DNA of 64,000 bases from an uncultured Candidatus Saccharibacteria bacterium (GTDB lineage Bacteria > Patescibacteriota > UBA1384 > GWA2-35-9 > CAYZGQ01). Every line of letters begins with the position of its first letter. The stretch's first letter is position 1. Positions 3,707 to 45,903 of this stretch are shown here, in pieces. A model generated the notes under the pieces. That model saw only the letters and a list, made by a program, of their open reading frames with translations, did not search any database and was not told where the DNA came from. The stretch is from positions 3,365 through 67,364 of the forward strand of contig CAYZGQ010000001.1 of the NCBI GenBank assembly GCA_964478135.1, given 5' to 3'. The position numbers were made by a program, and so were the translations under genes.

Positions 3707-3707
3707 T

Positions 3708-5445: not shown

Positions 5446-5479
5446 AATGGCATTGAATCGCCATAGTTAGATTTTCACA

Positions 5480-7058: not shown

Positions 7059-7071
7059 TAAAATAAACACT

Positions 7072-8883: not shown

Positions 8884-8927
8884 ATTTGTCTTCACTTCCA
8901 GTTGATTTAGTGACATACTGATCAATT

Positions 8928-27445: not shown

Positions 27446-30400
27446 TTGATCCCGCTGGCACAAGCAGGCCAGCTTTTTGGCTATTCAGCCGGTCATATGA
27501 ACTATTTAGCCCGGTCAGGGAAAATAATCGCTTTGAAACTCGGGGGTCAGTGGTACACGACTCGGGCGGCTGTTTCAGCCTACCAGGCCGGTCAACCCCA
27601 ACCGGAAAACCCGACCGGATTTATGTCTTTAGCCCAAGCGGCCAAGCAGTATGGCTATAGCGCCGGACATCTCAACCTTTTAGCCCGAGAAGGTAAGCTT
27701 GAAGCGGTGAAACTTGGGCGAAACTGGTACACGACCGAGCGCGCTATCGACCAGTACCGACAAGGCGTGCGTGAGATAGAATTAGTGCCAGATAGTCCTG
27801 ACCCGGCGCTCCAGATATCCCAGCCAGAAAATATTAATGTTAAAGTCAGGCCAGTAGCCAGTTACCAGGGATTTGGCATAACCGAAACCGATGATGACGC
27901 GCCAGGTCCGACCGGGGGATTTAGGCTCAAGTCAGTTATGGTCAGCCGTGGTTTTAAGCTCGGGTTGATCACACTTATAGTGTCTGGGCTGGCTTTTGGA
28001 CTGGGACGACTGGTTCAAGGCTGGCGCACGGGTGAGTTGAATGGACTGGGGCCATCTGGCATCGCGGCTTATTTGTTTGGTGGAGAGTTGGCCCAAGGAG
28101 ATCGTCTGGGCTCGGGTTTTCTCGGCAGTATCACACGAGAGCGAGCTCAATCCGATACGCCTGGGGTCAGACCCGAGGCGAGCCCTAGTCCGGACACTGT
28201 GGTCAATAACACGACAGTCAACAACTATAACCAGACCGTTAACAACGACAATCGTCAGGTGACAAACATCAGTACAACCAAAACTGCTAAAGATATTGTT
28301 GGAGAGTTATCCGACCCGCAGGTGAGTGATGACATCACGATTAACTCGAGCAAGGCTGGTTCGTTTAGTCCAAGCGGTAACACTACTGCCTTGACGGTCA
28401 AGCAAAGTTCAGCCAGTCCCTCGGAAACCCCGATCGTTAAGATTCAAAACGCGTCTGGGGCTAACCTTGTCACAGTTGATTTTGAAGGCAATTTAGGTCT
28501 GGCTGGTGGATCTAGATTGGAAATAGGCGGTCAGCAAATAGGAATTGCCAATCTAGCGGATGGATCTTCTATCGCGTCTCTTTCCGGTAGTCAAACTCTG
28601 ACTAATAAAACTTTGAGCGCGGGCGTTATCTACCAAGGATCGGCGATTAGCCCGAGCTACGGCGGGACCGGTCTAACATCAGCTCCCAGCAACGGCCAAC
28701 TCTTGATCGGCAATGGCTCGGGTTATACTCTGGCGGCTCTAACGGCTGGGACGGCAATTAATGTGACCAACGGTTCTGGTTCAATTACGATCGCTAATTC
28801 AGGTGTTACCTCGCTATCTGCCGGAACCGGCATCGCTGTTAGCGGTTCGTCGGGCGCGGTTACACTGACCAATTCGGGCGTGACCGCTCTGACCGGCACA
28901 ACCAACCAGGTCAGCCTGTCTGGTTCAACCGGTTCGATCACCATCTCAACGCCCCAAAACATTCATACCGGCGCCAGTCCAACCTTTTCAAGGCTCAATT
29001 TATCCGAGGCGTCCAATCAGTTGGTTCTTCAGTCAAATAGTGTTACAGGCAGTCTGACCTGGACGCCGGTCACATCCAATAAAACGATCACTCTGCCTAA
29101 TCTCACCGGAACCGCTTTTTTGATTGATGGAGGCCAGACGATCAGCTCTGCTGTCTGGAACGCTAGCGCTATCGGCCCGAGCTATGGCGGGACTGGTCAG
29201 ACGACCCTGGCCAAGGGTGATATTTTGTATGGCTCGGCGACTGATATTTGGTCGCGACTGGCTGTTGGCAGTATTGGTTATGTCCTCCAGGTCTCCCTAG
29301 ACGGCGTTCCAGAATGGGCGACTATTTCTTCCTTATCTGTTGGTAATGCTGACACGCTTGATTCGCTTGATTCAGCGGATTTTTTGCGCGCGACCGCCTC
29401 GGACACTTTTGAAGGAGTTAATTCAAGAACCCTGACCATTCAGTCTGATCTTTCCTCAGGCGCGAGGACGGTTGACCTTTTGACGATCAGCCAGGCGAAC
29501 GATCCAACCAATAACTTTACGACTGGCAATCTCCTAACAATTGCCCAACTCGACACCGGTTCGTCGGCCGATGCCTTAGAACTTAATCAGACTGGATCTG
29601 GTAAGGCTATTAACATTGTTTCAGGCGAGCTGGCGACAGCCGGCAACATCGTTCAAACCGGGGCAACCACGCTGTCAACCGGCACGGGCGCGGTCTCGCT
29701 CGGGGGTGACACGACCATCGCTACTGGAAAGAACTTGACTCTCGCGTCCGGGACAGGCACTTTTAGTCAGATTTTTAGTAATACGACCGGTACTGGAGCA
29801 AACTGGAATATCACTAACTCTGGTTCTTCTGGGACTAACACTGTTGGCGGGATAGGATTAGTGTTGGCTGGAACCGCCAACACGACTGGTTCGAATGTGA
29901 TTAATGCTATTAATTTTTCCAATGTCCCTCCGGCGACCAATAATTCTTATTACGCCCTGAATGTCGGAACCGGCTTTACTGATATTGTACGCTACAATGG
30001 CGCCCAGTTGATCTCTGGCTCGGGTGTCATTCAATCGGCCGCGCTTTCTGGTAACTACACTGGTGTTACTGGAGTTGGGATTTTATCCACCGGCACCTGG
30101 AATGCAGACACAATCATCTTTGCCAAGGGCGGCACGGGCTTAACAGCCACGCCCAGCAATGGCCAACTCTTGATCGGCAATGGCTCGGGTTACACTCTGG
30201 CCGGCTTAACCGGCACTACCAATCAGATCAATGTCGCTAGCGGGGCCGGTTCGATCACCCTCTCAACTCCCCAAAACATCCATACCGCCGCCAGTCCAAC
30301 CTTTGCCGGTTTGACTTTGTCCGACTTGACCCCTGGTTCTTTGGTCTTTGCCGGCGCCGGCGGGGTGATCAGCCAGGACAACGCCAAGTTCTTCTGGGAT

Positions 30401-32896
30401 CAGACAAATACTCGATTGGGTCTCGGGACAAGTTCGCCACTTTTTCCGATTCATGTTGTTAGATCGGGCGGTGGCGGGACGTTGAATTTTGACACTTACG
30501 CCGGTTCTGGACTGGGCAACAGCGCCATTCAAGGTCGGCGGGCGGCCGGAACTTTGGCCAGCCCGACAGCCACTCTGTCGGATATGACTCTGTTCGATCT
30601 GCTTGGGTCTGGCTACGACGGTTCAGCTTTCACCGGACAGATCGCTTCGATACGCATGCAAGCCAATCAGAATTTTAGCCCGACCAGTCAGGGCACCAGG
30701 ATTGTCTTTTTGACCACGGCCAATGATTCGACGACCGCGACTGAACGGCTGCGGATCAAACACAATGGCGATGTGGCAATCGGCAACGGCTCGACCGATC
30801 AGATATTATTTGGTTCGACCGGCTCGGCGGTCTTCAACGAACAGGGCAATGATGCCGATTTTCGGGTCGAGGGCGACACCGACGCCAATCTATTGTTCAC
30901 CGACGCTTCGGCCGATGTCTTGGGTGTCGGCACCGCGACCTTCGAAGCCAACACCCGCAAGATGGAGGTGAGATACACCGATACCGCGACCTCCGGAGGC
31001 ACCTTTTCAACGATTAGATTGCTTTCGGACATCAATGCTCCTTCTAACTCCACGGCATCCCATTTTGGTCTAGGAACGACTTTAAGAACCGCGAGCGGCA
31101 ACGCTTCCAACTACACCGACTCCACGACAGGTATTAAGGCGATGAACTTTGTCGTCCAGCACCGAGGCACAGGCACGGTTACTAGAATGACAGGCTTGGG
31201 CGGCAATGTCACCAACAGCTCAAGCGGTACGATTACGACTGCCGAGAGCATCGTGGCTGGGGTTGACCTGACCTCAACCGGTCCGATTACTACTTGGAAC
31301 GCCCTGCGGGTCTTCGCGCCCTCTATCACTGGCTCTGGGGTGCTGACTAACGCTCGCGGGCTTTACATCAGTAACATCACAGGGGCCTCCACGCAGAATC
31401 TAGCTATCCTGACAGAAGGGGGCGGAGTAGTCTTTAATGAAAACGGCACGGACAGCGATTTCCGGGTCGAGGGCGACACCGATGCCAATCTATTGTTCAC
31501 CGACGCTTCGGCTGATCGGGTTGGTATAGGGACAAACACCCCTTCGCTCAAACTTCACGTGGTGGACAACTCTTCAACTTCGGCTATTTTCCAGCGCAAC
31601 AGCACTGCCACCGGTTCGAGTGTTGGCTCAACGGTTTTTTTGGATAATTTGGACACCACGACCAACAATGGAGCTCGTTTGATTTTTAGAACCAACGATA
31701 CTGGCGGCGCAACCAGGCAAGCGGCTGGAATAGGCTCGCTCGTAACCGCCCGGGGTGCTAGCAGTGTGACTGGCGATCTGGTATTCCTGACCAACAACAA
31801 CTCAACCGGCGTTTCCGAGGTTGCTCGGTTAACCGGAGCGGGCGCGCTTGGCATTGGTGAGTCGCCGGCGGCCAATATGAAGCTTGATGTCGCTGGCCGG
31901 GTTCAGATTAATCTGGCCGGAACCCAAACCTCGGTTGCCTTGTGCGGTAGTCACCCGGCTGGCGGCGGGGCCTCGGTTTCCGATGTCGAGATTGTTGACT
32001 GCACCGGCACGCCGGCGGCTGACTATGCCGAGATCTATCCGGTTTCAAACGATGTTGAATACACTGATTTAGTGGCTATCGGACCGGATTCGGTTAAAAC
32101 CACCGATCAAAACTCGATTCAAAGGCTAGTCAAAGCTACGATCGCCAATCAAGCCAACACTTTAGGAGTCGTTGTTGACAACTACGGCGATTTCTCCTCG
32201 GTCGGTCACAACATTAAAGGTTCTGATAATCCCAAACCGGTCGCGCTTTCAGGCCGGGTGAGAGTGAAAGTTTCCGGCCAGTCGGGCGCGATAGCGCCCG
32301 GCGATTATCTGACCGCCTCGTCCAAACCCGGTCGGGCGATGAAGGCGACCTCAAGCGCCAAGATAGTTGGAGTGGCTTTGGGATCATTTAGCGGCGACGA
32401 GGGGACGGTAATGATGTTTGTCAGCAATTTCTGGTATAATCCGTCTTCGGGCGAGAGTATTCAGGGTACCCAAACTGCATCCTACCAGGCGCTCGAAGTT
32501 GCCGGCCTTTTGCGAACGAATCTTTTGGAGGTTGCCGGGCCAGCCGAGTTCAAAGGTAGTTTAGTTGTCTGGGGTGAAACAACCTTTAAGGCACCGGTTG
32601 TGGTTCAAAAGACGCTGACTGCTAAAGAAAAGATCGTGTCCAAAGGTGACCTTGAGCTCAAGGGCAATCTTGTTCTAAACCCCGACATTAAAGGGTCAGC
32701 CTTGCCAGTGACTAAGGGCGCGACCAGCCTTGAGGTCGTGTTTAGCAAGCCCCAAGCTGACACAAGCTACTTGGCTTTCGTCACGCCATCCCAGCCGATC
32801 GGTTTTGGCGTTACCAAACAATCTGACAAAATGATCGTTACCTTTGAGGCCGAGGCGCCGGAAGGATTAATCCTGGATTGGCTGATAGTCAGATGA
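27446..32896 (+). CDS. giant (1816 aa) membrane protein: two N-terminal excisionase-type HTH modules, one TM helix, long S/T/G-rich repetitive extracytoplasmic region
   Basis: Two tandem roughly 45-aa units (LAQAGQLFGYSAGHMNYLARSGKIIALKLGGQWYTT and LAQAAKQYGYSAGHLNLLAREGKLEAVKLGRNWYTT) match the HTH_17/excisionase pattern. A TM helix follows (FKLGLITLIVSGLAFGL). There are near-identical internal DNA repeats. The start codon is TTG as given by the ORF track, with no ATG and no SD in frame upstream, so the start is uncertain. Confidence 0.7.
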   Translation: MIPLAQAGQLFGYSAGHMNYLARSGKIIALKLGGQWYTTRAAVSAYQAGQPQPENPTGFMSLAQAAKQYGYSAGHLNLLAREGKLEAVKLGRNWYTTERAIDQYRQGVREIELVPDSPDPALQISQPENINVKVRPVASYQGFGITETDDDAPGPTGGFRLKSVMVSRGFKLGLITLIVSGLAFGLGRLVQGWRTGELNGLGPSGIAAYLFGGELAQGDRLGSGFLGSITRERAQSDTPGVRPEASPSPDTVVNNTTVNNYNQTVNNDNRQVTNISTTKTAKDIVGELSDPQVSDDITINSSKAGSFSPSGNTTALTVKQSSASPSETPIVKIQNASGANLVTVDFEGNLGLAGGSRLEIGGQQIGIANLADGSSIASLSGSQTLTNKTLSAGVIYQGSAISPSYGGTGLTSAPSNGQLLIGNGSGYTLAALTAGTAINVTNGSGSITIANSGVTSLSAGTGIAVSGSSGAVTLTNSGVTALTGTTNQVSLSGSTGSITISTPQNIHTGASPTFSRLNLSEASNQLVLQSNSVTGSLTWTPVTSNKTITLPNLTGTAFLIDGGQTISSAVWNASAIGPSYGGTGQTTLAKGDILYGSATDIWSRLAVGSIGYVLQVSLDGVPEWATISSLSVGNADTLDSLDSADFLRATASDTFEGVNSRTLTIQSDLSSGARTVDLLTISQANDPTNNFTTGNLLTIAQLDTGSSADALELNQTGSGKAINIVSGELATAGNIVQTGATTLSTGTGAVSLGGDTTIATGKNLTLASGTGTFSQIFSNTTGTGANWNITNSGSSGTNTVGGIGLVLAGTANTTGSNVINAINFSNVPPATNNSYYALNVGTGFTDIVRYNGAQLISGSGVIQSAALSGNYTGVTGVGILSTGTWNADTIIFAKGGTGLTATPSNGQLLIGNGSGYTLAGLTGTTNQINVASGAGSITLSTPQNIHTAASPTFAGLTLSDLTPGSLVFAGAGGVISQDNAKFFWDQTNTRLGLGTSSPLFPIHVVRSGGGGTLNFDTYAGSGLGNSAIQGRRAAGTLASPTATLSDMTLFDLLGSGYDGSAFTGQIASIRMQANQNFSPTSQGTRIVFLTTANDSTTATERLRIKHNGDVAIGNGSTDQILFGSTGSAVFNEQGNDADFRVEGDTDANLLFTDASADVLGVGTATFEANTRKMEVRYTDTATSGGTFSTIRLLSDINAPSNSTASHFGLGTTLRTASGNASNYTDSTTGIKAMNFVVQHRGTGTVTRMTGLGGNVTNSSSGTITTAESIVAGVDLTSTGPITTWNALRVFAPSITGSGVLTNARGLYISNITGASTQNLAILTEGGGVVFNENGTDSDFRVEGDTDANLLFTDASADRVGIGTNTPSLKLHVVDNSSTSAIFQRNSTATGSSVGSTVFLDNLDTTTNNGARLIFRTNDTGGATRQAAGIGSLVTARGASSVTGDLVFLTNNNSTGVSEVARLTGAGALGIGESPAANMKLDVAGRVQINLAGTQTSVALCGSHPAGGGASVSDVEIVDCTGTPAADYAEIYPVSNDVEYTDLVAIGPDSVKTTDQNSIQRLVKATIANQANTLGVVVDNYGDFSSVGHNIKGSDNPKPVALSGRVRVKVSGQSGAIAPGDYLTASSKPGRAMKATSSAKIVGVALGSFSGDEGTVMMFVSNFWYNPSSGESIQGTQTASYQALEVAGLLRTNLLEVAGPAEFKGSLVVWGETTFKAPVVVQKTLTAKEKIVSKGDLELKGNLVLNPDIKGSALPVTKGATSLEVVFSKPQADTSYLAFVTPSQPIGFGVTKQSDKMIVTFEAEAPEGLILDWLIVR

Positions 32897-33447: not shown

Positions 33448-34581
33448 ATGACTAAACGTCTCATCGTTGCGGGCGCTCTAATTTTGGCACTTTTGATTGG
33501 CGGAGCCGGCGGAGCGGCCTTTGTTTTGATCAGTGGTATTTCGAGTGTTCCGTCAGGCGCTATTGGGTCGGCCAAAAGTGATGCCAGCCGGGTTGAGAAA
33601 GTGGTTGTCGAGCAGTCATCGGGCGTGATAGACAGTGTTAAGAAAGTTTCTTCATCGGTTGTGGCGATCACTGTTAAGGGACAAGTGATTGATTTCTTTT
33701 TTGGACCAGTTTCTACCAGTTCGGCCGGCACTGGTTTTATCGTTACTGCCGATGGGTTAATTATCACTAATAAACATGTTGTTGCGGACGATAAGTCGGA
33801 ATACACGGTTTTCTTGCCAGACGGACGAAATTTTTCGGCCAAGGTGGTTGACCGCGACCCGCTCCAGGATTTGGCCTTTATTAAGATCGAGTCGAACGGT
33901 TTGCCGGTGGTTGAGTTGGGAGATTCTGACCGATTACAGGTAGGCGAGCAGGTGATTGCGATCGGCAACGCCTTGGGCGAGTTTCAAAATACAGTAACAG
34001 TTGGAGTGATTTCAGCCAAGAATCGTCAGATTACGGCATCAAACGGGGGTCAGGCCGAACCACTATCCGGCCTTTTACAAACCGATGCGGCCATCAACTC
34101 GGGCAACTCCGGCGGCCCGCTGGTTAATTTACGCGGTCAAGTGATCGGGATTAACACCGCTACCGCGACCAAGGGCGCCGCCGAAGGAATTGGCTTTGCC
34201 ATACCGACTAACACTGTTAAGCCTTCTTTAACCAGGATTACTAAACTCGGCCGAATTGCTCGGCCAATGCTTGGAGTTAGGTTTGCCAACATCACAAAAG
34301 AGTTGGCTGACCTGGAAAACTTGCCGGTTACTCAAGGCGCTTTGCTCGTGTCAGATGTCCAGGGTCGCCAACAAGCGGTTGTGGCCGGCGGACCGGCTGA
34401 CAAAGCCGGCCTTAAAAACGGTGACATTATTAGCCACATTAATGGTGATAAGATTGATCAGAGTAACTCTTTGCCCCAATTGATTGATCAGTATAACCCG
34501 GGGGACACGGTTGAGCTGACCGTGATCCGAGACCAAAAGACGCTCAAGATCAAAGTTCGACTCGAGGAGCTCAAGGTTTAG
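33448..34581 (+). CDS. htrA: HtrA/DegP-family serine protease with PDZ domain
   Basis: Catalytic triad context: His (TNKHVV), Asp, and Ser in GNSGGPLVN. C-terminal PDZ. N-terminal TM anchor. Confidence 0.85.
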   Translation: MTKRLIVAGALILALLIGGAGGAAFVLISGISSVPSGAIGSAKSDASRVEKVVVEQSSGVIDSVKKVSSSVVAITVKGQVIDFFFGPVSTSSAGTGFIVTADGLIITNKHVVADDKSEYTVFLPDGRNFSAKVVDRDPLQDLAFIKIESNGLPVVELGDSDRLQVGEQVIAIGNALGEFQNTVTVGVISAKNRQITASNGGQAEPLSGLLQTDAAINSGNSGGPLVNLRGQVIGINTATATKGAAEGIGFAIPTNTVKPSLTRITKLGRIARPMLGVRFANITKELADLENLPVTQGALLVSDVQGRQQAVVAGGPADKAGLKNGDIISHINGDKIDQSNSLPQLIDQYNPGDTVELTVIRDQKTLKIKVRLEELKV

Positions 34582-34597: not shown

Positions 34598-35275
34598 CTA
34601 GCTGGCTGGCGAGGGGCTTGGGCTAGCGGCTGATTGGCCAGTTTGACGGGCGAACACAATGTAACGTTTGACGAGCGTGCCCGGAGGCCAAGAGGTTTGG
34701 AGAGTTATGGTTTTGTCTTTCGGATCTTTGGGCGTTGGGTCTAGAACCGAGAAGTCGTCAGAGGCGACCACCTTCTTGCCAAAGACCTCGTATTGGTAGG
34801 CGACATTTTTGTAATAGACGATGAACCGATCGCCTTTGTCGAGTTTGTCGATACTTTTGAAGATTTCTTTAAGTTCTGGTTTACCCGGGAAGTTTTTAAA
34901 GTAGCTCGAGTGACCGAAGATGTACATATTTCCCAGTTGGTCCGGTTTCTGGCTACCTTTTAGATGTGCGACACCGAGCTGGGAGGTGATTTTTTGATAG
35001 ACCGGTTCGTTAGCCCCGTCAACATCCGCGATAATTGGAACCCGGATGCTGATTTTTTCGATCTCAAGACCAAATTCTTTGATCTCGACTGGTTCTGGCA
35101 GGGAACTTTGATTAAGCCCTGAAGGAGAGGCAGAGGGTTGAACGATTGATACGTTCAAGCCTGACTTTACCAAAGCAAGCGTTCCGGCAACAACCATAGC
35201 GCTTGCTAGTCCAATACCAAGAATAACTAGCTTTTTTTGAGTAGTCACTTGTGGCAAGACAGATTGTGGGTTCAC
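34598..35275 (-). CDS. sortase-fold protein (class E-like) with Ser at the catalytic Cys position
   Basis: N-terminal TM anchor. Catalytic His context (NMYIFGHSSYF). TLQTSWPPGTLVKRYIVFA aligns with the sortase TLxTC...R active-site strand, but it is encoded as acc-tct-tgg (Ser), which I verified by reverse-complementing 34650-34700. The GTG start overlaps the TGA stop of the upstream LPKTG gene. Confidence 0.65.
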   Translation of the reverse strand: MNPQSVLPQVTTQKKLVILGIGLASAMVVAGTLALVKSGLNVSIVQPSASPSGLNQSSLPEPVEIKEFGLEIEKISIRVPIIADVDGANEPVYQKITSQLGVAHLKGSQKPDQLGNMYIFGHSSYFKNFPGKPELKEIFKSIDKLDKGDRFIVYYKNVAYQYEVFGKKVVASDDFSVLDPTPKDPKDKTITLQTSWPPGTLVKRYIVFARQTGQSAASPSPSPAS

Positions 35276-38200
35276 GCGAGCCGGCGTCGAAGGGTTACCG
35301 CGACCGATCCAGCGGCAAGAGCGGCCAGTCCGATCAAGGCCAGTAGGTTGAGCGCGAGCGTGTTGGCCCCGGTTTTCGGCAGCTCAACAACCTGCGCCGA
35401 AACCTGATCGGTGTTAATTGACTCGTTGCCAGTTGTATCGAGGGAGCGCAGGGTGTAGTAGTATGTCCCTTTGGCGGTCAGGCTGTCATTATAACTCGTG
35501 TCTGCCTTGACGGTCGTCTTAATTTTATCGCCTAGCTTTCCAGATTCACTCGAGCGGTAAATGTTAATCTTGTCAAAGTCAGAGTCGGTTGGATTTTTCC
35601 AAGTTAAACTGATCTTACCAGTGCCGGCAGTCGCTTTGACTTCGCTTGGAGCGGCCGGCGGGGCGCTGTCAGCGTTGGCCGCCAGGCCAAAGACGGTTAA
35701 GTGGGAAACCAAACAACTAACTTCGTTTTTAGTGGTGTCAACGGTGCAGTTTTCCTTAGACAGTGAACCATCGGTCTCGTTGAATGAGACGATCTGGATA
35801 TCAGCTTCTTTGACCCCGGCCGGAATATCGGATTCTTTATAGGGGAAGGTGACGGTCAAGGGACTGTTGGGAGAAGTAATGTTAGAACCATTAGAGTCGA
35901 TCGCCGTGATATTATAAGCCTTTCCAAAGACAGAGGCACCTTCTTGGGCAGGCATTTCTGCTGTGGCGCCAACATTAAGCGTGACATTAGCGTCATCATT
36001 GTTTTTATCGAGTGCATCTGCGGGCACTTGGATGTTCATACCATCGCTTAAGGAGATTGCCGTAGCCGAACCCGAATTGCCAGTTCTTGAAGCGTCAGCT
36101 GGCAAAACGTTGCTTTGGGTAGTCAAACTAAAATCTTGGGTGAGATTGGTCGTTTGACCCTTGGTGTTAACCAGTTTTTCACCTGGTAGGATTATGACAT
36201 CTTTTTGGTTATCAGCATCTTTGGCGACATCAAGGTGCCAGACAGTATCTTTGGTGGCATTCATTGAGTATTTGCCATTGGAATCAGTCCGGACTTGGTT
36301 GACAGCGCCGTCGTCGGAATAGGCGCTGACAAGGGCATTGTTGACTGTTTGAGCGCTGGAATCATTAACTGTGCCTTCAAACTTAAAGTCGGCTTTGCGT
36401 AACTTAAAGTCAACCCCAGTTTTAGTTTCTTGATTGCCCACGCTAACGATTTGTTCAGCCGGTGGTAGCCAGCCATTTTTATTCAGCACTTCGGGCGCCA
36501 TAAAAACTCGGATGTTTTGGGTTTCACTGGAAGTGACATCGATTGAGTAGCTACCATTCGTATCAGTTTGGCCACTGAATTCGAAGAAGTCAGGCACAGG
36601 ACCTTTAGTTGCGTTGCGGTTATCGTCGTCTAGGCCGTTGTCCACTTTAACTTTCGCTCCCACGACCGCGTTACCATCGGGATCGGTGACTTTACCTTGG
36701 ATTTTGCTGTCAAGGGCTTTGAGTGTTACTTTAACCTCTGCCGTTTGGCCGGCCGTCAGGCTGACTTTGTCTTTGGGGGGTACCATGGCAAAGCCTGAAC
36801 CTGGTTCGATAAAGACACCGACACGGTAGGGGCTTTGCCCGGCAACAACACTAATGTTGTTAACAGAGGCGGCTCCGCCATGACCGGCGAAATCACCCAT
36901 GACATTGACACCTTTGTCAGAAATAGCAAAGGCGTGGGCAAAGACGCCGGAAATGGCACTGCCGTCAGATTTCACTAACTTAACGGCAATGTTAGCATCG
37001 GTAGGAACCAGCTTGATATCAATTGATTTGACCTCGTTTTTAGCAAGTTTGACCTTGCTAAATCCTTCGGGCATAAAGCCGTTCATTGGCATCATTGGGT
37101 TTAATGTGTACTCATTGTCACCGGGAACTTTGATATTAGCGCTCCCACGCTGGATTGGTTTACCCAGAAAGCCGATCGTATCACTATTAACTTCCATAAA
37201 GCCAAAGCTGTCAGAGACGACAGCTTTGGTGTCAGAACGGGTAATCCTGGCCTTGATGGTGGCATCGGCGTTAAGTGCCTCGAAGGTAGCTGTTCCACCG
37301 GCTTCAACGAACTGTGGCCCGCCTTTGATCACCTTGGAACTGCCAGCCTGTTGCTCTTGATCCTTTTGACCACCTTCAGGTCCAAAGTTCTCTGACATCA
37401 CCATCACGCCGTATTTGCCCGTGCCGACCACAGGGATCGTGCCGGTTGCTTCGGTCCCAGTCAGCTTAAGAATAGTAAAGCCGAATTCACCGCCTCCACC
37501 GACGCCCATCTTAAAGACATTGGCATTCATGTCGGCGGAGCCGTTTTTAACCACGACTTTGATTGCCTTTTCTTTTTTTACCAGAGTCAGGATACCGAGG
37601 TTTTTGGTTTCGCCGGCTTTAACCGCGATTGGCTCAATGACAGGCGCTGCGAACTGGGCGGCGTTGGGATTTTGGAAGTTCGGTGGCGAAAAGATGTCGA
37701 AATTATAGCTTTTTCCTCCGGCTACTTTCACGTTGAAGTTGACCGAGGAGGCACCCGGGGTAATCTGGAGGGGCGCGCCAAAGCCAAAGTCATTACCGGC
37801 CCGGATACCAAGACCGGTGCCTTGAGCTAGGGCGGATCCATCAGGCGTGGTAATTGTACCGGTAACCGCGGCGTCGACTTTTACGAAGTTATTAATGTTA
37901 ACGGTGACTGTTTCCACTGAATCGTCGTCTTTAAAGCTAGCCTGAATTGGCGGACCGCTCATCACGAAACTGCCGGCCCCATCGCTCGGGGCATGGATAT
38001 TCCATCTACCACCCGAGAGTTTGACGCTGTAGTTGCCGCTCCCGTCGGTTTTAGTTTGGGCAAAACCACCCGCTTCTTTAAAGAAGTTTAAGCTAGTAGT
38101 GATTACAGCTTCACCGGTCGCGGTGGTTGCTTTACCGGTTAAAGTTTTGGTCGCAGATTTAAATTTAATGGTTTTGCCAGTCAATTGGCTGCCGGTGTAG

Positions 38201-38598
38201 GTACCAAGATCTGTGAACGGGGGAGAGATTAATCCAGTGGTTGAGCCGTCAAACGGTGGGAAAAGATCGGCCACGAGCTTGTCGCCGCTTTGGGTGTTAT
38301 TAGCGAAGTCTTGGATAGTTGCCAGGCCGTTAGCGTCTGAATTGCTAAATAAGGAATATTTAAAATCAATCGGATGGACGTTAACTCCGGCGTTTTTGAC
38401 CGGCGCGCCATCGGCATCCTGGATGGTAATTACAATAATGGTTTTAGCCGTGGGTGGTGGTTGGGCGAGTGAGGCGCCAGAGTAGGCGAGGACTAGGCCC
38501 GCGATAGTGAAGACGCTTGTAAGGCCGCGCCAGTACAGGCGGAAAGCACCCGCCTGGGTCGTTCCTGATTGTAACATTATCCCTCCTTTTGAGCTCAA
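35272..38598 (-). CDS. LPKTG-anchored giant surface protein (1108 aa) with Ig-like/carboxypeptidase-regulatory-like domains and a C-terminal FN3
   Basis: N-terminal signal/TM. A C-terminal sorting signal (LPKTG, hydrophobic stretch, then RRRLA). FN3 signature (TYYYTLRSLDTTGNES). Strong SD (aaaaggaggg) before the ATG. Confidence 0.8.
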   Translation of the reverse strand: MSSKGGIMLQSGTTQAGAFRLYWRGLTSVFTIAGLVLAYSGASLAQPPPTAKTIIVITIQDADGAPVKNAGVNVHPIDFKYSLFSNSDANGLATIQDFANNTQSGDKLVADLFPPFDGSTTGLISPPFTDLGTYTGSQLTGKTIKFKSATKTLTGKATTATGEAVITTSLNFFKEAGGFAQTKTDGSGNYSVKLSGGRWNIHAPSDGAGSFVMSGPPIQASFKDDDSVETVTVNINNFVKVDAAVTGTITTPDGSALAQGTGLGIRAGNDFGFGAPLQITPGASSVNFNVKVAGGKSYNFDIFSPPNFQNPNAAQFAAPVIEPIAVKAGETKNLGILTLVKKEKAIKVVVKNGSADMNANVFKMGVGGGGEFGFTILKLTGTEATGTIPVVGTGKYGVMVMSENFGPEGGQKDQEQQAGSSKVIKGGPQFVEAGGTATFEALNADATIKARITRSDTKAVVSDSFGFMEVNSDTIGFLGKPIQRGSANIKVPGDNEYTLNPMMPMNGFMPEGFSKVKLAKNEVKSIDIKLVPTDANIAVKLVKSDGSAISGVFAHAFAISDKGVNVMGDFAGHGGAASVNNISVVAGQSPYRVGVFIEPGSGFAMVPPKDKVSLTAGQTAEVKVTLKALDSKIQGKVTDPDGNAVVGAKVKVDNGLDDDNRNATKGPVPDFFEFSGQTDTNGSYSIDVTSSETQNIRVFMAPEVLNKNGWLPPAEQIVSVGNQETKTGVDFKLRKADFKFEGTVNDSSAQTVNNALVSAYSDDGAVNQVRTDSNGKYSMNATKDTVWHLDVAKDADNQKDVIILPGEKLVNTKGQTTNLTQDFSLTTQSNVLPADASRTGNSGSATAISLSDGMNIQVPADALDKNNDDANVTLNVGATAEMPAQEGASVFGKAYNITAIDSNGSNITSPNSPLTVTFPYKESDIPAGVKEADIQIVSFNETDGSLSKENCTVDTTKNEVSCLVSHLTVFGLAANADSAPPAAPSEVKATAGTGKISLTWKNPTDSDFDKINIYRSSESGKLGDKIKTTVKADTSYNDSLTAKGTYYYTLRSLDTTGNESINTDQVSAQVVELPKTGANTLALNLLALIGLAALAAGSVAVTLRRRLA

Positions 38599-38619
38599 GA
38601 TATATTTAATTAATTTGTA

Positions 38620-38661
38620 ATTCTGTTTTTAAAATAACAAGATTTGGCAGATGTGTCAAGT
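38620..38661 (-). promoter_or_regulatory. candidate sigma70-like promoter for the LPKTG gene
   Basis: Read on the minus strand: TTGACA, a 17-nt spacer, then TATTTT, about 25 nt upstream of the SD. Confidence 0.35.
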
Positions 38662-38678
38662 TTCAGACTGTGGAAAGC

Positions 38679-39587
38679 TTAATTCTTTTTGGATTGTTGA
38701 GTTATTGATTCAAAGATCGGTTCAAGTTGACCATCTAAAATAGAGTTTATTCTGGAAAAACTTTTACCCGATCGATGGTCGGTCACCCTGTCCTGGGGGA
38801 AGTTGTAAGTTCTGATTTTTTCCGATCGATCACCCGAACCAACCATTTGTTTGCGAACTTTATCGGTCTTGGCGTGGATGCTGGCATCCTCGATTTTATT
38901 GAGCCGGGCGGCTAAAACCGCCAGTGCGCTTTGTCTGTTGGCCGTTTGAGAACGTTCGTCCTGTGAGGTCGCGACTAGGCCGGTTGGCCGGTGAACGATT
39001 CGGACCGCTGTCTCAACCTTATTAACATTTTGACCGCCGTGACCGCCGGCGCGAAAAAATGATATTTCAAGCTCGCTTGGTTTTAATTTAGCCGAGTCTT
39101 GTTTGACAACCGGCAAAACCGCGACCGTGGCGGCGGATGTGTGAATTCGGCCTCTCTTTTCCGTTACTGGTGTTCGCTGGACCCGGTGAACACCAGCCTC
39201 GGTTTTGAGGGAGTGATAGGGACTTGGGTTAGTTTCAAGTTGAGCCGATCCTTGGTTTTGTTTAACTTCTACTATGGCCGATTTAATCCCGCCTTGACTT
39301 GACGTTTGAATCTCAATCGGCCGCCAAATCCACGATCGGCGATGGCAAAAGTGCCGATACATTCTTAAAAGATCGGCCGCCCAAATTTCAGCCTCACCCC
39401 CGCCCACGCCGGCCCTGATTTCAAGAAAACAGTCATTGACTCGTTCTTCCTTTTGGCCCTTAAACTGACCGGTTTGAGCCTCGAGGCGTTTAATGTCCTC
39501 GCGAGCCATCTGCCCGATCGCAGGATCAGGATTTGAAGCGAGCGCCCGCGCCTGATTGAGCTGTTTGACAATTGTTTGATAGTCCAT
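38679..39587 (-). CDS. prfA: peptide chain release factor 1
   Basis: GGQ motif ([16 protein letters not shown]). Domain-2 tripeptide PVT within [26 protein letters not shown], which is the RF1 type (PxT) rather than RF2 (SPF). No frameshift site. Confidence 0.85.
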
Positions 39588-39791
39588 AGTTTTGGGCTGG
39601 TTTGAGTTTGTTTCGCCGGCAATTGGTTTGAAACTGACCCAGTCTTGCCAACCGAGCTAAGATAATGTTACACTCATCAACTGGATTGGTAAAATGTAAT
39701 ACTAAAATATAGACTCTCATACTAGACGAGAGAGATTGATTTTTTCTCTCTTTATCTTTAATTGTAATTTACTTTTGTCTTGCCGATCAAA

Positions 39792-40028
39792 ATGAAAAAA
39801 AAGATCCATCCAACCTATCACCAGGCGAGCGTGAGGTGCGCCTGCGGCGCTAACTACACCGTTGGCTCAACCAAGACTAACATGAGTATTGAGGTTTGTA
39901 GCGCCTGTCATCCACTTTTTACAGGCGATGCTAAGTTTTTGGACACAGCCGGGAGGATTGATCGCTTTAAGGCGAGACTTAAACAGTTGTCCGAGGCCGA
40001 ACCTAAGACTGCAAAAAAGTTAAAGTAA
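39792..40028 (+). CDS. rpmE: ribosomal protein bL31 (Zn-binding type A)
   Basis: MKKKIHPTYH...CACG...CSACHPLFTG carries the CxxC...CxxC zinc ribbon of L31. Confidence 0.85.
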   Translation: MKKKIHPTYHQASVRCACGANYTVGSTKTNMSIEVCSACHPLFTGDAKFLDTAGRIDRFKARLKQLSEAEPKTAKKLK

Positions 40029-40068
40029 CTAAAGCCTTTTTGCTAATTTCAACCCAATAACTGGATAT

Positions 40069-40959
40069 ATGGCTACCAAGATTATTAAAGTAAAAGCGGT
40101 CAAGTCAGCCCAAACAACTACCGGTCGCCAGAAGACCGAAAGCCATCTTATGGGTAAGACGAGCAAGGCCAAGGAGCCTTCAAAGATAGCCCTGCCAAGT
40201 GTTGAGAAACTATTTGAACTGGGCGCCCATTTTGGTCATCAGCGCTACCGATCTCATCCTGATTTTCAGGAATACGTCTGGCAAGTGCGCGATGGAGTTA
40301 TGATTTTGGATTTAAGCCAAACGCTTGACCGGCTCAAACTGGCGCTTGATTTTTTGGACAAGCAGAGTCGACTTGGCAAAAAAATACTAATTGTTGGGAC
40401 CAAGAGAATCAGTCGTGATTTGGTCGAGCGCTTGGGTAAAGAAACAAACACAGCTTGGGTCTCAAACCGGTGGTTGTCTGGTACTTTGACTAACTTTGCC
40501 ACTCTGATTGGACAAATCAAAAAACTCAATCGTTTAAGCGAGTTGATCGGCTCGAAAGAGTTTGAGCAGATGACTAAAAAGGAACGTTTAATCTGGGAGC
40601 GAAAACTGGCCAGGCTCCACGACAACTTTGACGGTTTGAGCAGTCTTGAGGCAAGACCGGATATATTAGTGGTGATTGACGGACACGCTCACCGGATTAG
40701 CACAGATGAAGCCAAACGTTTGGGGATCACCACGGTCGTGTTCGCCGACAGCGACACTGATCCTAGCCTGTGCGATTACTTGGTCCCGATTAACGATGAT
40801 TCACGATCAACGATCGAGCTGGTGATTAATTTAATCGGTCAAGCGATCGGCGGTGCCAGAACATCTGATCAGACAACAAAGCCGGACAGTCTAGTAAAAA
40901 GTGACAGAGCCAGAGCGCGCGGTTTAAGTAAAATCAATAATGTCCAAGACGTTAGTTGA
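40069..40959 (+). CDS. rpsB: ribosomal protein uS2
   Basis: LFELGAHFGHQ, VILDL-type and conserved S2 core. The N-terminal roughly 27-aa extension is uncertain, and an alternative start near 40150 is possible. Confidence 0.85.
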   Translation: MATKIIKVKAVKSAQTTTGRQKTESHLMGKTSKAKEPSKIALPSVEKLFELGAHFGHQRYRSHPDFQEYVWQVRDGVMILDLSQTLDRLKLALDFLDKQSRLGKKILIVGTKRISRDLVERLGKETNTAWVSNRWLSGTLTNFATLIGQIKKLNRLSELIGSKEFEQMTKKERLIWERKLARLHDNFDGLSSLEARPDILVVIDGHAHRISTDEAKRLGITTVVFADSDTDPSLCDYLVPINDDSRSTIELVINLIGQAIGGARTSDQTTKPDSLVKSDRARARGLSKINNVQDVS

Positions 40960-41404
40960 GACGATCAAAAAGCTCCGGGATGAAACAGGGGCCGGACTAA
41001 TGGATGTTAAAAAGGCGCTCACTCAAGCTGGTTCGGATCTCAACAAGGCGAGAGTGATTCTGCGTCAGACAAGCGCTGTCAAAGCGGTTCAAAAGAGTGA
41101 ACGCTCGACCCAAGCCGGCTTGATCGAATCATACGTCCACGCCGGCAAAATCGGGGTGCTGGTTGAGCTGGGTTGTCAGACCGATTTTGTGGCGCGCACG
41201 AGTGAGTTCAAGGCGCTAGCCCATGAACTAGCCCTGCAAGTGGCCTCAATGGCCCCTAAAAACGTGACCGAGCTGTTTAGCCAAAACTACATCAAAGACG
41301 AGTCAACCACGATCAAGCAGATTGTGAATAACGCGATCGCGAAACTGGGCGAAAATATTCAAATTAAGCGTTTTGTAAGGTTTGAACTTGGTCAGGGCGA
41401 CTGA
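40940..41404 (+). CDS. tsf: elongation factor Ts (short form)
   Basis: N-terminal UBA-like LRxxTGAGxMDCKKAL signature (IKKLRDETGAGLMDVKKAL). Follows rpsB as in the conserved rpsB-tsf pair. Confidence 0.85.
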   Translation: MSKTLVETIKKLRDETGAGLMDVKKALTQAGSDLNKARVILRQTSAVKAVQKSERSTQAGLIESYVHAGKIGVLVELGCQTDFVARTSEFKALAHELALQVASMAPKNVTELFSQNYIKDESTTIKQIVNNAIAKLGENIQIKRFVRFELGQGD

Positions 41405-41575
41405 CCATTCTTCAAACTGTAATGTCTCAACCGATTAGTTGCTCTTGACAAGGCTGGTTTATGTCTTGACAATGTAAGTAAGACACAAACCGAAGGAGGG
41501 GAAATTAATTCAAGACAGAATGAGACTTGGGGGTTTAGTCTAGGAGAGTCTCTTGCGAAGCCCTTTATATGGCTA

Positions 41576-44500
41576 GTGCTGGGTGTTTTAGCCCTGCTCG
41601 GTCTGGTTTTAGTCAGTCCTTCGGCCGTCCAGGCCGGTGCAATCACCGGTTTGTCGGTTACAGTCAGTGACACGAGCGTCCAAGGGACGGCTGACTGGAC
41701 AATTGCCCTGACTCCAGAACAGTCAGTCCCAGCCAAGTCAAATGGCGGTCGGATTCACATGTGTGTCTATGGACCAGGCTCGATGAGTTTTCGGGATGGT
41801 TCTGTCGCGCTCGATTCGTCGGCTAGCACGAGCGGTTTGTCAATCTATGAACGGTTGGGAAATTGTATCACCCTTCAGTCAAACAGCGAGATCGCAGGAG
41901 GAACGGTTATCACTGCCAAACTGACAGGGGTTAGAAACCCAGACAAAGCCGGACGGTATGTTGGTCACATCTACAGCTCGACCTACGGCACCGCCCGAGA
42001 CGGCACCTCTCGCTGGGGCGGGCTCTACAATAGTTCTTTTACCATCGGCGATTTGACCAAGAACACTATTTCAGGTACGGTCACAGATGCCAATGGCGCA
42101 CCGGTCCGGTTTGCCTCCGTCTCTGTTTGGGGTAGCGGCGGCGGCGCTTGGGGCTACAGCTACACCGATCAAAATGGCCAGTACGCGATCGGCAGTCTAA
42201 CCACTGGCTCCTACAACTTTAGCGTCTACGGTCCCTACAACGAAGACGGTATCTTTTATTTTGCGCCTGATGTTTCGAGTATTTCAATTTCCGATACTTC
42301 GGCCACGACCAAAAACGCCAGCTTTTTAGCGACTCCCAAAACATTGCAAATTAAGGTTGAGGACGGCTCTGGTACAGCCATAACCGATGCCTATGTCTCG
42401 ATCTGGTCCAGAAACGGGAATGGTTGGGCTCAAACCAAAAACAACACCAACGGAGTCTACAAGATTAATGTTCCGAAAAACCGGACTTTTGGGTTTAGCG
42501 TTTATCCCCAAAATTGGCCTTCAACCTGGCAGTCATGCGGCAGTTATAACGAAGAAGTTACGACCGCCAACACCGATACGGCCGAGACTGTCAGTAAGAC
42601 GTTTAAGGTTTCCTCGCTCAACGCCACGGTCAAAGGTAAGATTGAGCGGTCTGACGATAGCACGCCCAAGCGCTGGTCAGTGAGCGTGAGTTTCCAGTCA
42701 AGCGGAGGTTGCTGGGCTTCAGCCGACTTTCCCGACGACACTGGTAATTTCAGCGCTAAAGTTGTCAGTGGCGAGACTATCACCGCGACTGGTTGGGTTT
42801 CGAGTGATCTCAACGAATCATTCCCAACGGTCAGTAACTTTTCGGTCCAAGCCAACCAAGAGCACAACCTGGGCGTAATCAAACTTAAAAAGCGTGATAA
42901 AAAGCTCGCTGTGACGGTTGTGGACAAAAATGGCGATCCGGTTAACAAGGCCAACGTCTACGCTTGGAAAACTGGCGGTTCGTATGAATATGCCAACGGC
43001 ACAACTGGCTCCGATGGCAATGCGGAACTCTTTTTGAGTCCAGGCAGCTGGAATGTTTCGGCCGGGCCAGAGTACCGCTGGAATGGCTCAAACAACGAAT
43101 ATGACTATGTCTCCAACTGGAAGTCTCAATTGATCAGCTTTTCCGAGTCAGACACGACTAAAACGATCAAGTTTATCTTCCAAAAGGTTACCTCAACGAT
43201 TAATGTCACCGTGACCGATGAGGCTGGGAGCGTCCTTAACCTATCGGGTAGTTTGTCGGCCAACGATGGTTCGCAAGAATGGTCAAATATCTGGTCCCAG
43301 CTCAATAGTGGCAAAGGCAAGCTTAGGGTTCCCCGAGGGACCTGGAGTGTTAACGCCAGTATTTGGGATGAGACCTATAGCTCACCAAATCCGGTTGACA
43401 TCACGATCGGTGATAATGAGACCAAAGAGATCAAGCCCAAGGCCTTGATCAATGATTCGACCATTTCCGGCAAAATCTACACAGAAGATGAAGATGGTAA
43501 CCGGACCCTGCTTAAAAACACTTGGCTTAGCATCTATGCTAACAAAAAAAATTCCTACTCTTCTTGGCGGTCAGCCTCGGTCAACCAAGAAGAAGGAACC
43601 TATTCGATCAAAGTTTCCTCGGGTGACTGGAGGCTCGGTTACTGGTTTTATAACAACAATTATATGTCAGGATACGGGAACGAAGTTGATGTATCGGTTA
43701 AATCAGGTGAAACTAAGACCCAAGATATTATTCTGCGCAAAGCTAACTACACCATCTCGGTCAAGGCGCTCGATCCAGACGGCAAGGCGCTGATGGGGGC
43801 TTGGATCACGGCTGACACGCGCAATCCTAAAGAGCGGACCGAAGCTGGTACTTGGTACTCAACCGGTACCTCAACCAATAATCAGGGAGAGGGGACGATT
43901 CAAGTGTCAGCCAACACTTACTGGATTAGTGGTTCGATGTGGTCAGGTTATATCAGTCCAGAGCGCCAAGAGGTTAAGGTCAATAAAGACAATCCAACTG
44001 CCAGTGTCACTCTCCAGTTCGGTCGGTCTGATGCGACTATATCTGGCACAGTCAAGCTCGATGACAAAGGGACTAAGTCGTTTGTTAATGCGGTCAGCGA
44101 GAAAGGCCGCTATGCCGAGACTAATTCAAGTAACGAAGGCCATTACATCCTCAACGTCTCGAAAGACGACACTTGGGTCGTCAAGGCAGTTAAAAAGGAT
44201 GGCGCAACTTTGTATCGATCAGACAAGAATCGAGTTGATCTCACTGGTAAGACCACGGGCATAGTCAATCTCGATTTGGTAAAAGAAACAATCAAGTTGC
44301 CGGAGGGGACGACCAGCACCTTTAATGCCAGCCAGTCAACTACCGTTAAGATTAAAAATGGCAATGTTGACGAAGTGATCATCACTGTTCCGACTGGCAC
44401 CCTGTCGAGCGATAATGAACAGATAACTGTAACGGCCGATGTGACCGAAGAGGTCACCGACACTTCAACTAGCGAGCCTGTTTTCGACTACGGTTATGAC

Positions 44501-45193
44501 ATCAACGCCAACGGTAGCCAATCCGGCACAATCAGCCAGTTGAAGGATAACGTGACCGTGACCGTAAACTATTCGGCCAACGAGCAGGCGATCCAAGATG
44601 AGGGAACAGAAGAGGACCTAGTGGTAGCCCGTTTCAACAACGAGAAAGGTGAATGGGAGCAACTCCAAGGTTGCGCTACAAACAAGGATGACAACACTAT
44701 TACCTGTCAAAATAATCACTTCACCAAGTTTGCGGTTGTCGCTTCAACCGACATCACCCCACCTTCTGCTCCAGGTAGCCAGAAGGCGATTGCTTCGAAC
44801 GCTAAGATTTCTTTAAGCTGGAGCAAGCCAAGCCAGGCCGACTTTGCCGGGGTTAACATCTATCGGTCAACCGAGAGTGGCAAGCTGGGTGATAAGATTT
44901 ACGGCAAAAATACCTCCACCAGTCACGACGATACGGTTCTGATCAACGACACGGTCTATTACTATACCCTCAAGTCAGTTGACAAAGCCGGTAACGAGTC
45001 AACCGCATCCGATCAGCTCAAAGCCAAGCCTTCAGCAACCTCGCCGGAGTCATCGGACGGTTCAACCACTGCCACGCTCTCAATTCTGCCCAAGACTGGT
45101 CAACCAGCCTCGCCTTTGAATTGGTTGTTGGCGATTCTGACAGTGATCAGCCTGGCCGGGGTCAGGGCATCGAGGATTGTCCGGATTAAGTGA
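41576..45193 (+). CDS. LPKTG-anchored giant surface protein (1205 aa), paralog of 35272-38598
   Basis: N-terminal signal peptide. Repeated carboxypeptidase-regulatory-like beta-sandwich motifs (SGTVTDANGAPV). C-terminal FN3 (TVYYYTLKSVDKAGNES). LPKTG, a TM segment and a basic tail (RIVRIK). The GTG start is taken from the ORF track and the exact start is uncertain. Confidence 0.8.
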   Translation: MLGVLALLGLVLVSPSAVQAGAITGLSVTVSDTSVQGTADWTIALTPEQSVPAKSNGGRIHMCVYGPGSMSFRDGSVALDSSASTSGLSIYERLGNCITLQSNSEIAGGTVITAKLTGVRNPDKAGRYVGHIYSSTYGTARDGTSRWGGLYNSSFTIGDLTKNTISGTVTDANGAPVRFASVSVWGSGGGAWGYSYTDQNGQYAIGSLTTGSYNFSVYGPYNEDGIFYFAPDVSSISISDTSATTKNASFLATPKTLQIKVEDGSGTAITDAYVSIWSRNGNGWAQTKNNTNGVYKINVPKNRTFGFSVYPQNWPSTWQSCGSYNEEVTTANTDTAETVSKTFKVSSLNATVKGKIERSDDSTPKRWSVSVSFQSSGGCWASADFPDDTGNFSAKVVSGETITATGWVSSDLNESFPTVSNFSVQANQEHNLGVIKLKKRDKKLAVTVVDKNGDPVNKANVYAWKTGGSYEYANGTTGSDGNAELFLSPGSWNVSAGPEYRWNGSNNEYDYVSNWKSQLISFSESDTTKTIKFIFQKVTSTINVTVTDEAGSVLNLSGSLSANDGSQEWSNIWSQLNSGKGKLRVPRGTWSVNASIWDETYSSPNPVDITIGDNETKEIKPKALINDSTISGKIYTEDEDGNRTLLKNTWLSIYANKKNSYSSWRSASVNQEEGTYSIKVSSGDWRLGYWFYNNNYMSGYGNEVDVSVKSGETKTQDIILRKANYTISVKALDPDGKALMGAWITADTRNPKERTEAGTWYSTGTSTNNQGEGTIQVSANTYWISGSMWSGYISPERQEVKVNKDNPTASVTLQFGRSDATISGTVKLDDKGTKSFVNAVSEKGRYAETNSSNEGHYILNVSKDDTWVVKAVKKDGATLYRSDKNRVDLTGKTTGIVNLDLVKETIKLPEGTTSTFNASQSTTVKIKNGNVDEVIITVPTGTLSSDNEQITVTADVTEEVTDTSTSEPVFDYGYDINANGSQSGTISQLKDNVTVTVNYSANEQAIQDEGTEEDLVVARFNNEKGEWEQLQGCATNKDDNTITCQNNHFTKFAVVASTDITPPSAPGSQKAIASNAKISLSWSKPSQADFAGVNIYRSTESGKLGDKIYGKNTSTSHDDTVLINDTVYYYTLKSVDKAGNESTASDQLKAKPSATSPESSDGSTTATLSILPKTGQPASPLNWLLAILTVISLAGVRASRIVRIK

Positions 45194-45903
45194 AATATGC
45201 TTTAACGGCACATCTTTTATCCCGGGCGGGCAAAATAGATGAGCCTGATTTGATGATACTCATAACGGAAGCGGGATAATGGTGACCGTAAGCGATCGAT
45301 CAATCGCCGACCACTTACAGGCTGGCGTAAAGACATTGATTTAACCGACAAATCTCAAAAAAGCGGTTGGTTTTTTTTGTTTTGCTCGCGCTTTGTGAAT
45401 CTTAGACCAGGCAGGATCGAGGGTGAGGTATGGGCCCGAATAATTTAGGAGTCTGCTGGAAGGATCAGTCAATGTCTGATGAGCCCAGGCTGATCAAGGC
45501 CGGTTTTACCACCTGCTATTGACAATGGGCCTTAAAAAGTGTCTGGCTCCAGGTACCTTGGACTGGGTAGGGCCCGGCAGGCCCGACATTTGTCAAGACA
45601 AACAATCGCCACGATCAGCCTCGGATCTTGCGGATCTAGAATGCCTCGCGTCTAGCAGCCTGATATAAAACACCCCGAGAGACTTGACTAGTCAAGACCG
45701 TCAGATGACACTGGAGACCGTCTGGCCAAAGGCCGACCGGATGAGCGTCCAATAAGCGTGATATCGCAATAACTAAAAAATAGGTCAATTCAGTCTGGTG
45801 GTACCAGGCCGCGGATCAGGCTCTGACTGGTTCAAGATAAAAAATAAACGGGATGGGGCAATAATCAGCCATTGGGGTCGCCCAAAAGGCGATTTTTGAT
45901 CAA

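Follow-up and report, generated by a model that had tools for sequence, protein, structure and literature searches.

The window analysed here, i.e., the whole 64-kb stretch of contig CAYZGQ010000001.1, appears to come from the compact genome of an uncultivated bacterium in which most genes run in the same direction. It carries the genes for two giant surface proteins, here called protein A (35272–38577, minus strand) and protein B (41504–45193, plus strand), on either side of the translation genes prfA, rpmE, rpsB and tsf. A and B are probably two anciently diverged paralogues within a giant surface-protein family of bacteria resembling the Candidate Phyla Radiation (CPR)/Patescibacteria, and would be releasable adhesins that carry an autoproteolytic module of the GAIN/MAIN type and belong to a cassette beside prfA.

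Paralogy and a shared architecture are almost certain. BLASTP joined the two proteins end to end in a single alignment (~1150 columns, 26% identity, E-value of 5e-63) and their C-terminal ~250 residues were 36% identical, meaning that the similarity reaches beyond the sorting signal and that the original prediction of two paralogous LPKTG giants, whose open reading frames (ORFs) were found where it had placed them, held over the full length of the proteins. Both follow the same order, i.e., a signal peptide, seven to eight CarboxypepD_reg-like beta-sandwich repeats, a domain of ~150 amino acids (aa), a fibronectin type III (FN3) domain, LPKTG, a transmembrane segment and a basic tail. In protein A (minus strand throughout), a signal peptide read from the sequence (residues 1–38, ...SGASLA↓QP; 38464–38577) is followed by a stalk of seven repeats (residues 45–820; 36118–38445) with a ~100-aa segment outside the repeats at residues 335–437, a MAIN/GAIN_B-like domain (residues 819–970; 35668–36123), the FN3 domain (residues 971–1062; 35392–35667) and the sorting signal (35275–35382, with LPKTG at 35368–35382). 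In protein B (plus strand throughout), an N-terminal ~140-aa domain (AGAITG...NP..AG; 41636–42055) precedes eight repeats (residues 162–903; 42059–44284), the MAIN/GAIN_B-like domain (residues 903–1059; 44282–44752), the FN3 domain (44753–45031, placed by the alignment with A and by the FN3 part of an AlphaFold2 (AF2) model with pLDDT of ~70) and the sorting signal (45086–45190, with LPKTG at 45086–45100).

The repeats were recognized by Pfam CarboxypepD_reg (PF13620; E-values of 4e-19 in A and 2e-18 in B), and an iterated local hidden Markov model (HMM), seeded on these two significant Pfam stretches, found the seven repeats in A and the eight in B. They are shared by both proteins as predicted, but are distributed along them rather than confined to the N-terminus. 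The FN3 domain of A is backed by PDB sequence matches (3mpc, Fn3-like; E-value of 4e-4), and the pentapeptide, hydrophobic segment and positively charged tail of an LPXTG sorting signal are all present in A (LPKTG, ANTLALNLLALIGLAALAAGSVAVTL and RRRLA) and in B (LPKTG, ...WLLAILTVISLAGV and RASRIVRIK). The predicted common C-terminus of FN3, LPKTG, transmembrane segment and basic tail is therefore real, and the LPxTG-type tail, the repeats and the MAIN-like domain are all restricted to A and B among the ORFs of the window. An enzymatic function was considered for A and B and rejected, because no enzymatic or catalytic domain was detected in either.

The most likely start of protein A is ATG 38577, which lies behind an AAGGAGG Shine-Dalgarno sequence and gives 1101 aa, a length also obtained by independent gene calling from another sample; the 1108-aa protein proposed earlier corresponds to the maximal ORF from TTG 38598, which exists but probably does not mark the true start. 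Protein B was called from GTG 41576 (1205 aa), which has no Shine-Dalgarno sequence. Between the upstream stop codon and this GTG there is no ATG, GTG or TTG in the frame of B, and GAAGGAGG is found at 41492–41499, 4 nt ahead of an in-frame ATT at 41504. B probably starts at this ATT, which would add 24 aa and provide the signal peptide with a normal charged n-region.

The domain between repeats and FN3 very probably adopts a GAIN_B-like fold, as judged from profile matches and a structural model of moderate confidence. GAIN_B-like domains named MAIN (Microbial Autoproteolysis INducing) have been described as widespread across bacteria and archaea, and cleave themselves at HX↓S/T (HF↓S in YfkN of Bacillus subtilis), after which the fragments remain associated (Brogan & Rudner, bioRxiv 10.64898/2026.05.12.724683). 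Pfam GPS (PF01825) matched the domain of B with 26.3 bits (E-value of 1.1e-5), above its gathering threshold of 22.5, and was the only family matched by more than one of eight separately scanned pre-FN3 domains (four of the eight at E≤1). When domain profiles were compared with all PDB sequences, GAIN domains of adhesion G-protein-coupled receptors (GPCRs) accounted for 12 of the 15 matches of the first profile and for 5 of the 8 matches of an eight-sequence profile, the HLT of A being aligned opposite the HL↓T cleavage site of the receptors; such profile matches also support the domain of B. An AF2 model of the A domain alone (pLDDT of 72.3, pTM of 0.68) resembled the GAIN domains of CD97 and BAI3 in Foldseek (TM-score of 0.60–0.63), and placed H141-L142-T143 in the turn joining the last two strands (134–139 and 144–150). 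These residues correspond to H959-L960-T961 of protein A (35695–35703, minus strand), a predicted autoproteolysis site with the cut expected between L and T, and the counterpart in B is H1048-F1049-T1050 (44717–44725, plus strand). A conserved strand at this position (HLTVFGL in A, HFTKFAV in B) had been pointed out before and is present in both proteins, but had not been recognized as a GPS/GAIN-type autoproteolysis site. A tblastn search of plasmids with the MAIN-like domain of B gave weak matches only (E-value of 0.03), to an SpvB/TcaC-domain protein.

Immediately downstream of A, and beginning with a GTG that overlaps its stop codon, lies a sortase-family gene of 225 aa (34598–35275, minus strand). 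The encoded protein has an N-terminal transmembrane anchor and matches Pfam Sortase (PF04203; E-value of 1.7e-21, 76.7 bits vs. a threshold of 26.6) and TIGR01076 (42.5 bits, above the cutoff of 39.35), and none of the cutoffs of NCBIfam sortase classes A–F was reached (class E 51.2 vs. 160, class D 46.8 vs. 165, class C 40.8 vs. 160). As predicted, a single sortase-like gene was found in the 64-kb window, with no second one detected by tblastn, and A and B are both candidate substrates of it; what had been overlooked is that its catalytic Cys is missing. The active-site motif reads TLQTS in place of TLxTC, and cysteine is absent from the whole protein. Of the His-Cys-Arg triad, His (FGHSS) and Arg (KRY) are kept, and in an alignment with PDB 8gr6 the Ser stands opposite the catalytic Cys.

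The Ser form is conserved in orthologues that have diverged to 48–61% identity. It occurs in the sortase beside P0029, a close relative of A (sortase motif TVQTS), in those of L005 (3479–4102) and L034 (510–1115), and in P0156; it further occurs in a distant second sortase lineage (the pair P0191/P0193). Ser-type genes are also placed at L003:3797–4447 and L004:10001–10627. The codons concerned are TCT or TCC (TCT in the window) vs. TGC or TGT in the Cys-type relatives, and a sequencing error was rejected as the cause of the Ser since independent assemblies agree on a TCY codon there. The Cys-type sortase nearest to it (P0155, 59% identical) falls inside the group of Ser forms in a neighbor-joining (NJ) tree without bootstrap. 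All named relatives of this sortase come from Candidatus Berkelbacteria, a candidate phylum, and the bacterium of the window is probably Berkelbacteria-like. A literature search for Ser-type sortases and CPR sortase substrates returned nothing specific.

Because His and Arg are retained, the sortase gene remains overlapped with an LPxTG substrate gene, and LP[KT]TG is preserved in the substrates, the Ser-sortase is probably a constrained and functional protein. Going further, we tentatively propose, as a possibility rather than as the expected outcome, that a CPR sortase-fold lineage uses Ser as its acyl-enzyme nucleophile, that the swap took place at least twice, and that such enzymes are the functional partners of LPxTG giants with a self-cleaving GAIN-like domain, so that the cell surface would be built by Ser-sortases anchoring force-releasable adhesins. 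The alternative is that the Ser-type sortase is dead or a mere hydrolase, leaving A and B either with the C-terminal helix as a membrane tether or dependent for their anchoring on a canonical Cys-sortase from a part of the genome beyond the window. The complete lack of cysteines would fit this, as would the description of all characterised sortases as cysteine transpeptidases in the abstracts that cover them, and the window shows only 64 kb of the genome. Nevertheless, we consider this alternative rather unlikely, given the maintenance of the Ser variant across the orthologues with its His and Arg, its origin in at least two lineages (in the same unbootstrapped tree), and the preserved overlap and LP[KT]TG motifs of the adjoining substrate genes.

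By analogy with the GAIN and MAIN domains, it is fairly likely that A and B actually cleave themselves at HxT. We rate both as further MAIN-type surface proteins, a kind described only recently, from the published description, the motif and the predicted fold. A number of points weigh against this view. The A domain (19.4 bits) and its counterpart in P0029 (17.6 bits) stay below the Pfam GPS cutoff of 22.5; the GPS/GAIN sequence matches are individually marginal (E-values of 0.01–2 in PDB), and the eight-sequence profile gave no better E-values. The model of the A domain was built on an alignment of three sequences, and the AF2 model of the MAIN-like and FN3 domains of B (likewise three sequences) reached a pLDDT of only 47.6. 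Moreover, the FN3 domain separates the MAIN-like domain of A and B from the anchor, whereas in YfkN and the IgA Fc receptor, both singled out in the preprint, the MAIN domain directly precedes the sortase signal (bioRxiv 10.64898/2026.05.12.724683). Finally, the neighbouring sortase lacks the catalytic Cys, which makes covalent wall anchoring by this enzyme uncertain, and we infer, rather than observe, autoproteolysis and release of A and B.

The GAIN_B/ZU5-like domain might also be purely structural or serve binding, as most ZU5 domains do, in which case cleavage would not occur and A and B would act as stalk adhesins or envelope-layer proteins whose attachment is permanent. This is unlikely in view of the conservation across 21 homologues (median identity of 40% in the module, with divergence down to 26%), in which conservation of the domain peaks at H, T/S and F in the H-x-T/S-x-F strand, the pattern expected of a catalytic motif. 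Specifically, H and T/S are found at the site in all 21 sequences, and G921, H959, T/S961, F963 and D970 are the only invariant or near-invariant positions of the MAIN-like part. It is also at odds with the finding that nearly all bacterial MAIN domains assayed were cleaved (bioRxiv 10.64898/2026.05.12.724683).

With self-cleavage as the favored reading, the following sequence of events can be proposed. A and B would be exported via the N-terminal signal peptide read from their sequences and, according to the domain matches, would display a rod of seven to eight transthyretin-like (CarboxypepD_reg-like) beta-sandwich domains. Stalk adhesins are classically built in this way, as a rod of beta-sandwich repeats fixed to a wall anchor. 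The C-terminal LPKTG would hold the protein at the envelope and, going by sortase biology, the adjoining and translationally overlapped sortase-family enzyme would link this signal to peptidoglycan. Between rod and anchor, the ~150-residue domain of predicted GAIN_B/ZU5 fold, with its conserved H-x-T/S modelled in the turn of the last two strands, would then be cut between L960 and T961 in A and between F1049 and T1050 in B, analogous to adhesion-GPCR GAIN domains and to the HF↓S of MAIN. Such a cut would leave an ectodomain of ~96 kDa (A) or ~111 kDa (B) non-covalently seated on an anchored stub of ~12–13 kDa consisting of the last beta-strand, FN3 and linker (computed masses). The ectodomain might ultimately be shed under mechanical load, e.g., on detachment from a surface or host cell; this force-dependent release is a speculative extension of the analogy, and we hold it as a possibility that is more doubtful than not.

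Relatives of A and B were gathered from the neighbourhoods of sortase homologues and from a metagenome scan (JGI) with an alignment of the MAIN-like and FN3 domains, the latter yielding 79 loci, of which 23, from groundwater and sediment, were family members. All members of the family carry H-[LFM]-[TS]-x-F-[AG]-[LIV], followed by FN3 and almost always by LPxTG with a variable x. No relatives emerged from scans of GTDB genomes (with the A/B alignment or rpsB) or from the first JGI metagenome scan. In an exhaustive HMMER search with an FN3-containing profile, the 150 top matches comprised 148 multi-FN3 giants, which left P0016 (B itself) and P0029 (the A orthologue) as the informative ones. A word-indexed homology search gave two FN3-only matches for the C-terminal module and none for the MAIN-only alignment; this search did not return the query proteins themselves.

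In full-length BLAST comparisons, A is nearest to P0029 (81%) and L005 (61%), followed by the prfA-adjacent giants of L008, L021 and L028 (first giant; 31–32%). The best match of B is a stand-alone protein of L014/L015 (31%, 432 bits), the gene of which sits among unrelated genes, vs. 208–222 bits and 25–26% for its match with A. The N-terminal ~140-aa domain of B is common to the giants of L006, L008, L009, L010 and L021, and absent from A and the A clade. Since A and B each have closer relatives in other lineages, they appear to be old paralogues. Typically, the giant gene of the relatives is followed by an overlapping sortase gene, and the layout with tsf-rpsB-rpmE divergent from prfA-giant-sortase, and htrA opposite, is also found in L006, L008, L021/22 and L028–30. 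No B-like gene follows tsf in those relatives where the region is visible (L008 and L021). Because this layout recurs in lineages that lack a B-like gene after tsf, both the core-gene arrangement and its prfA-giant-sortase cassette are, by synteny, ancestral, and B looks like a separate old paralogue that was inserted between tsf and frr.

The original prediction had instead envisaged a duplication-inversion capturing the core genes, and had raised the choice between a pilus and an adhesin role. Taken as a recent, local event in which a single LPKTG gene was copied and prfA-rpmE-rpsB-tsf became trapped between the copies, with the products possibly being pilins polymerised by the single sortase, this is highly improbable, even though the two genes point in opposite directions, have a common architecture and each possess a TTGACA-type element, since A and B are merely 25–26% identical with closer relatives elsewhere, the divergent core layout with a single giant is kept in relatives lacking B, the closest relative of B lies in an unrelated context, the L028 giants are in tandem instead, a regex search of A and B found neither the YPKN pilin motif nor an E-box, and the sortase remains under the class C cutoff.

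Two members of the family deserve separate mention. In L028, prfA and the only sortase gene, of the Cys type, enclose a tandem of two paralogous giants with MAIN-like and FN3 domains (3463–7137 and 7556–10570); the first of these is split into 479 and 742 aa and has lost the LPxTG tail, the cause being a frameshift or else an error of assembly. Another member (L035:7034–10762 and L036:1–1929) has HLS rather than HxT and a non-LPXTG C-terminus (...SPPIADFIAKHASLRSMVRFFLKPVV), which points to another kind of anchoring signal behind the same module of MAIN-like and FN3 domains.

Regarding the locus itself, A follows prfA on its 3′ side, both genes being on the minus strand, and tsf is followed by B. 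Between them lie prfA (38679–39587, minus strand), assigned to release factor 1 (RF1, 302 aa) by NCBIfam and lacking the N-terminal ~45–55 residues of the model, rpmE for ribosomal protein L31 (39792–40028, plus strand), rpsB for ribosomal protein S2 (40069–40959, plus strand; Pfam) and tsf for a short EF-Ts of 154 aa (40940–41404, plus strand; Pfam). A and B are thus on opposite strands around these genes as predicted, but transcription diverges from the prfA/rpmE intergenic spacer and not from the giant genes. The TTGACA-type –35 elements predicted for both giant genes are indeed present, as consensus matches: TTGACA-17(TG)-TATTTT upstream of A (38631–38659, minus strand) and TTGACA-17-GACAAT upstream of B (41445–41473, plus strand) are the two best sigma-70-like matches within 34–46 kb (10 of 12 positions each), both with a perfect TTGACA and directly upstream of their gene. 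Since relatives show equally short forms (RF1 of 238–292 aa where the gene appears complete, EF-Ts of 160 aa in L021), the short RF1 and EF-Ts look like lineage traits rather than truncations.

Downstream of B, a gap of ~710 nt without any ORF >50 aa (45194–45903), long for a compact genome, precedes a cytidylyltransferase-like gene, frr, rseP and proS. This gap has no Rfam match at E≤1 and a fold z-score of merely –1.75, and could be the scar of the B insertion or an undescribed RNA; an Rfam scan and a tRNA search of the whole window found nothing. On the other side of the locus, convergent with the sortase gene, lies a gene for an HtrA-like serine protease with a PDZ domain (33448–34581, plus strand; Pfam), a neighbour that is conserved in at least five other lineages (L003, L009, L012, L021–23 and L028–32) and hints at a functional link to the export of the giants or to their quality control. 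Two more giant ORFs occur in the window, encoding 2085 aa (13204–19461, plus strand) and 1816 aa (27446–32896, plus strand), the former of which has FN3-like units in common with A and B, with no MAIN-like domain or LPxTG. Proteins identical to those of the window were found in runs ERR4904391 and ERR3478686 (Logan contigs) and on a contig at NCBI.

For CPR/Patescibacteria, a life in attachment to other cells is assumed. How this attachment is made and undone is poorly understood, and most of these bacteria are unculturable. The present conserved cassette, i.e., a giant stalk protein with a GAIN-like module and a dedicated sortase beside translation genes, is a concrete candidate for the machinery by which one CPR lineage attaches and lets go. 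If active, the cysteine-free sortase would alter the textbook view that sortases are cysteine transpeptidases, and might serve an oxidation-insensitive protein ligation chemistry. RefSeq covers metagenome-assembled genomes poorly, which is the basis for regarding this part of the tree as probably under-sampled in the MAIN survey. A and B would extend the MAIN family into this group. The survey used RefSeq Select, and the main text of the preprint does not mention Patescibacteria (bioRxiv 10.64898/2026.05.12.724683).

Among known systems, the autoproteolytic beta-sandwiches of ZU5, FIIND (NLRP1, CARD8) and Nup98 differ from those of A and B in being eukaryotic and cytosolic with other domain partners. 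The GAIN-GPS domains of adhesion GPCRs and polycystin-1 (PF01825; PDB 4dlo, 4dlq, 9mqr) share with A the HL↓T at the same place, with both A and B two cysteines flanking the strand, and a membrane-proximal position beneath a long adhesive ectodomain. In contrast, A and B have neither the helical subdomain A nor a downstream seven-transmembrane receptor, their anchor is a sortase signal, the flanking cysteines are missing in most family members, and the sequence similarity is marginal. LPXTG stalk adhesins of Gram-positive bacteria have in common with A and B a signal peptide, tandem beta-sandwich repeats, LPXTG followed by a transmembrane segment and basic tail, and an adjoining sortase gene; A and B differ in having CarboxypepD_reg/transthyretin-like repeats and a CPR-like host, and the linked sortase falls below all class A–F cutoffs with Ser at the nucleophile position. 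Compared with the MAIN proteins, A and B carry Thr where those of Bacillota typically have Ser (HFS), possess FN3 between domain and anchor, come from a CPR-like host with a Ser-type partner sortase, and show no detectable enzymatic domain; self-cleavage was demonstrated experimentally for MAIN and is predicted from sequence and model for A and B. MAIN domains are positioned between a large adhesive or enzymatic ectodomain and a sortase or S-layer anchor, and that of YfkN superimposes on the GAIN_B domain of latrophilin with a TM-score of 0.63 (bioRxiv 10.64898/2026.05.12.724683). In the same manner, A and B are large secreted proteins in which a signal peptide, adhesion-type domains, a GAIN_B-like domain (TM-score of ~0.6 to GAIN_B) and a sortase signal follow each other, with H-hydrophobic-S/T in the turn ahead of the last strand and with FN3 and Ig-like partner domains.

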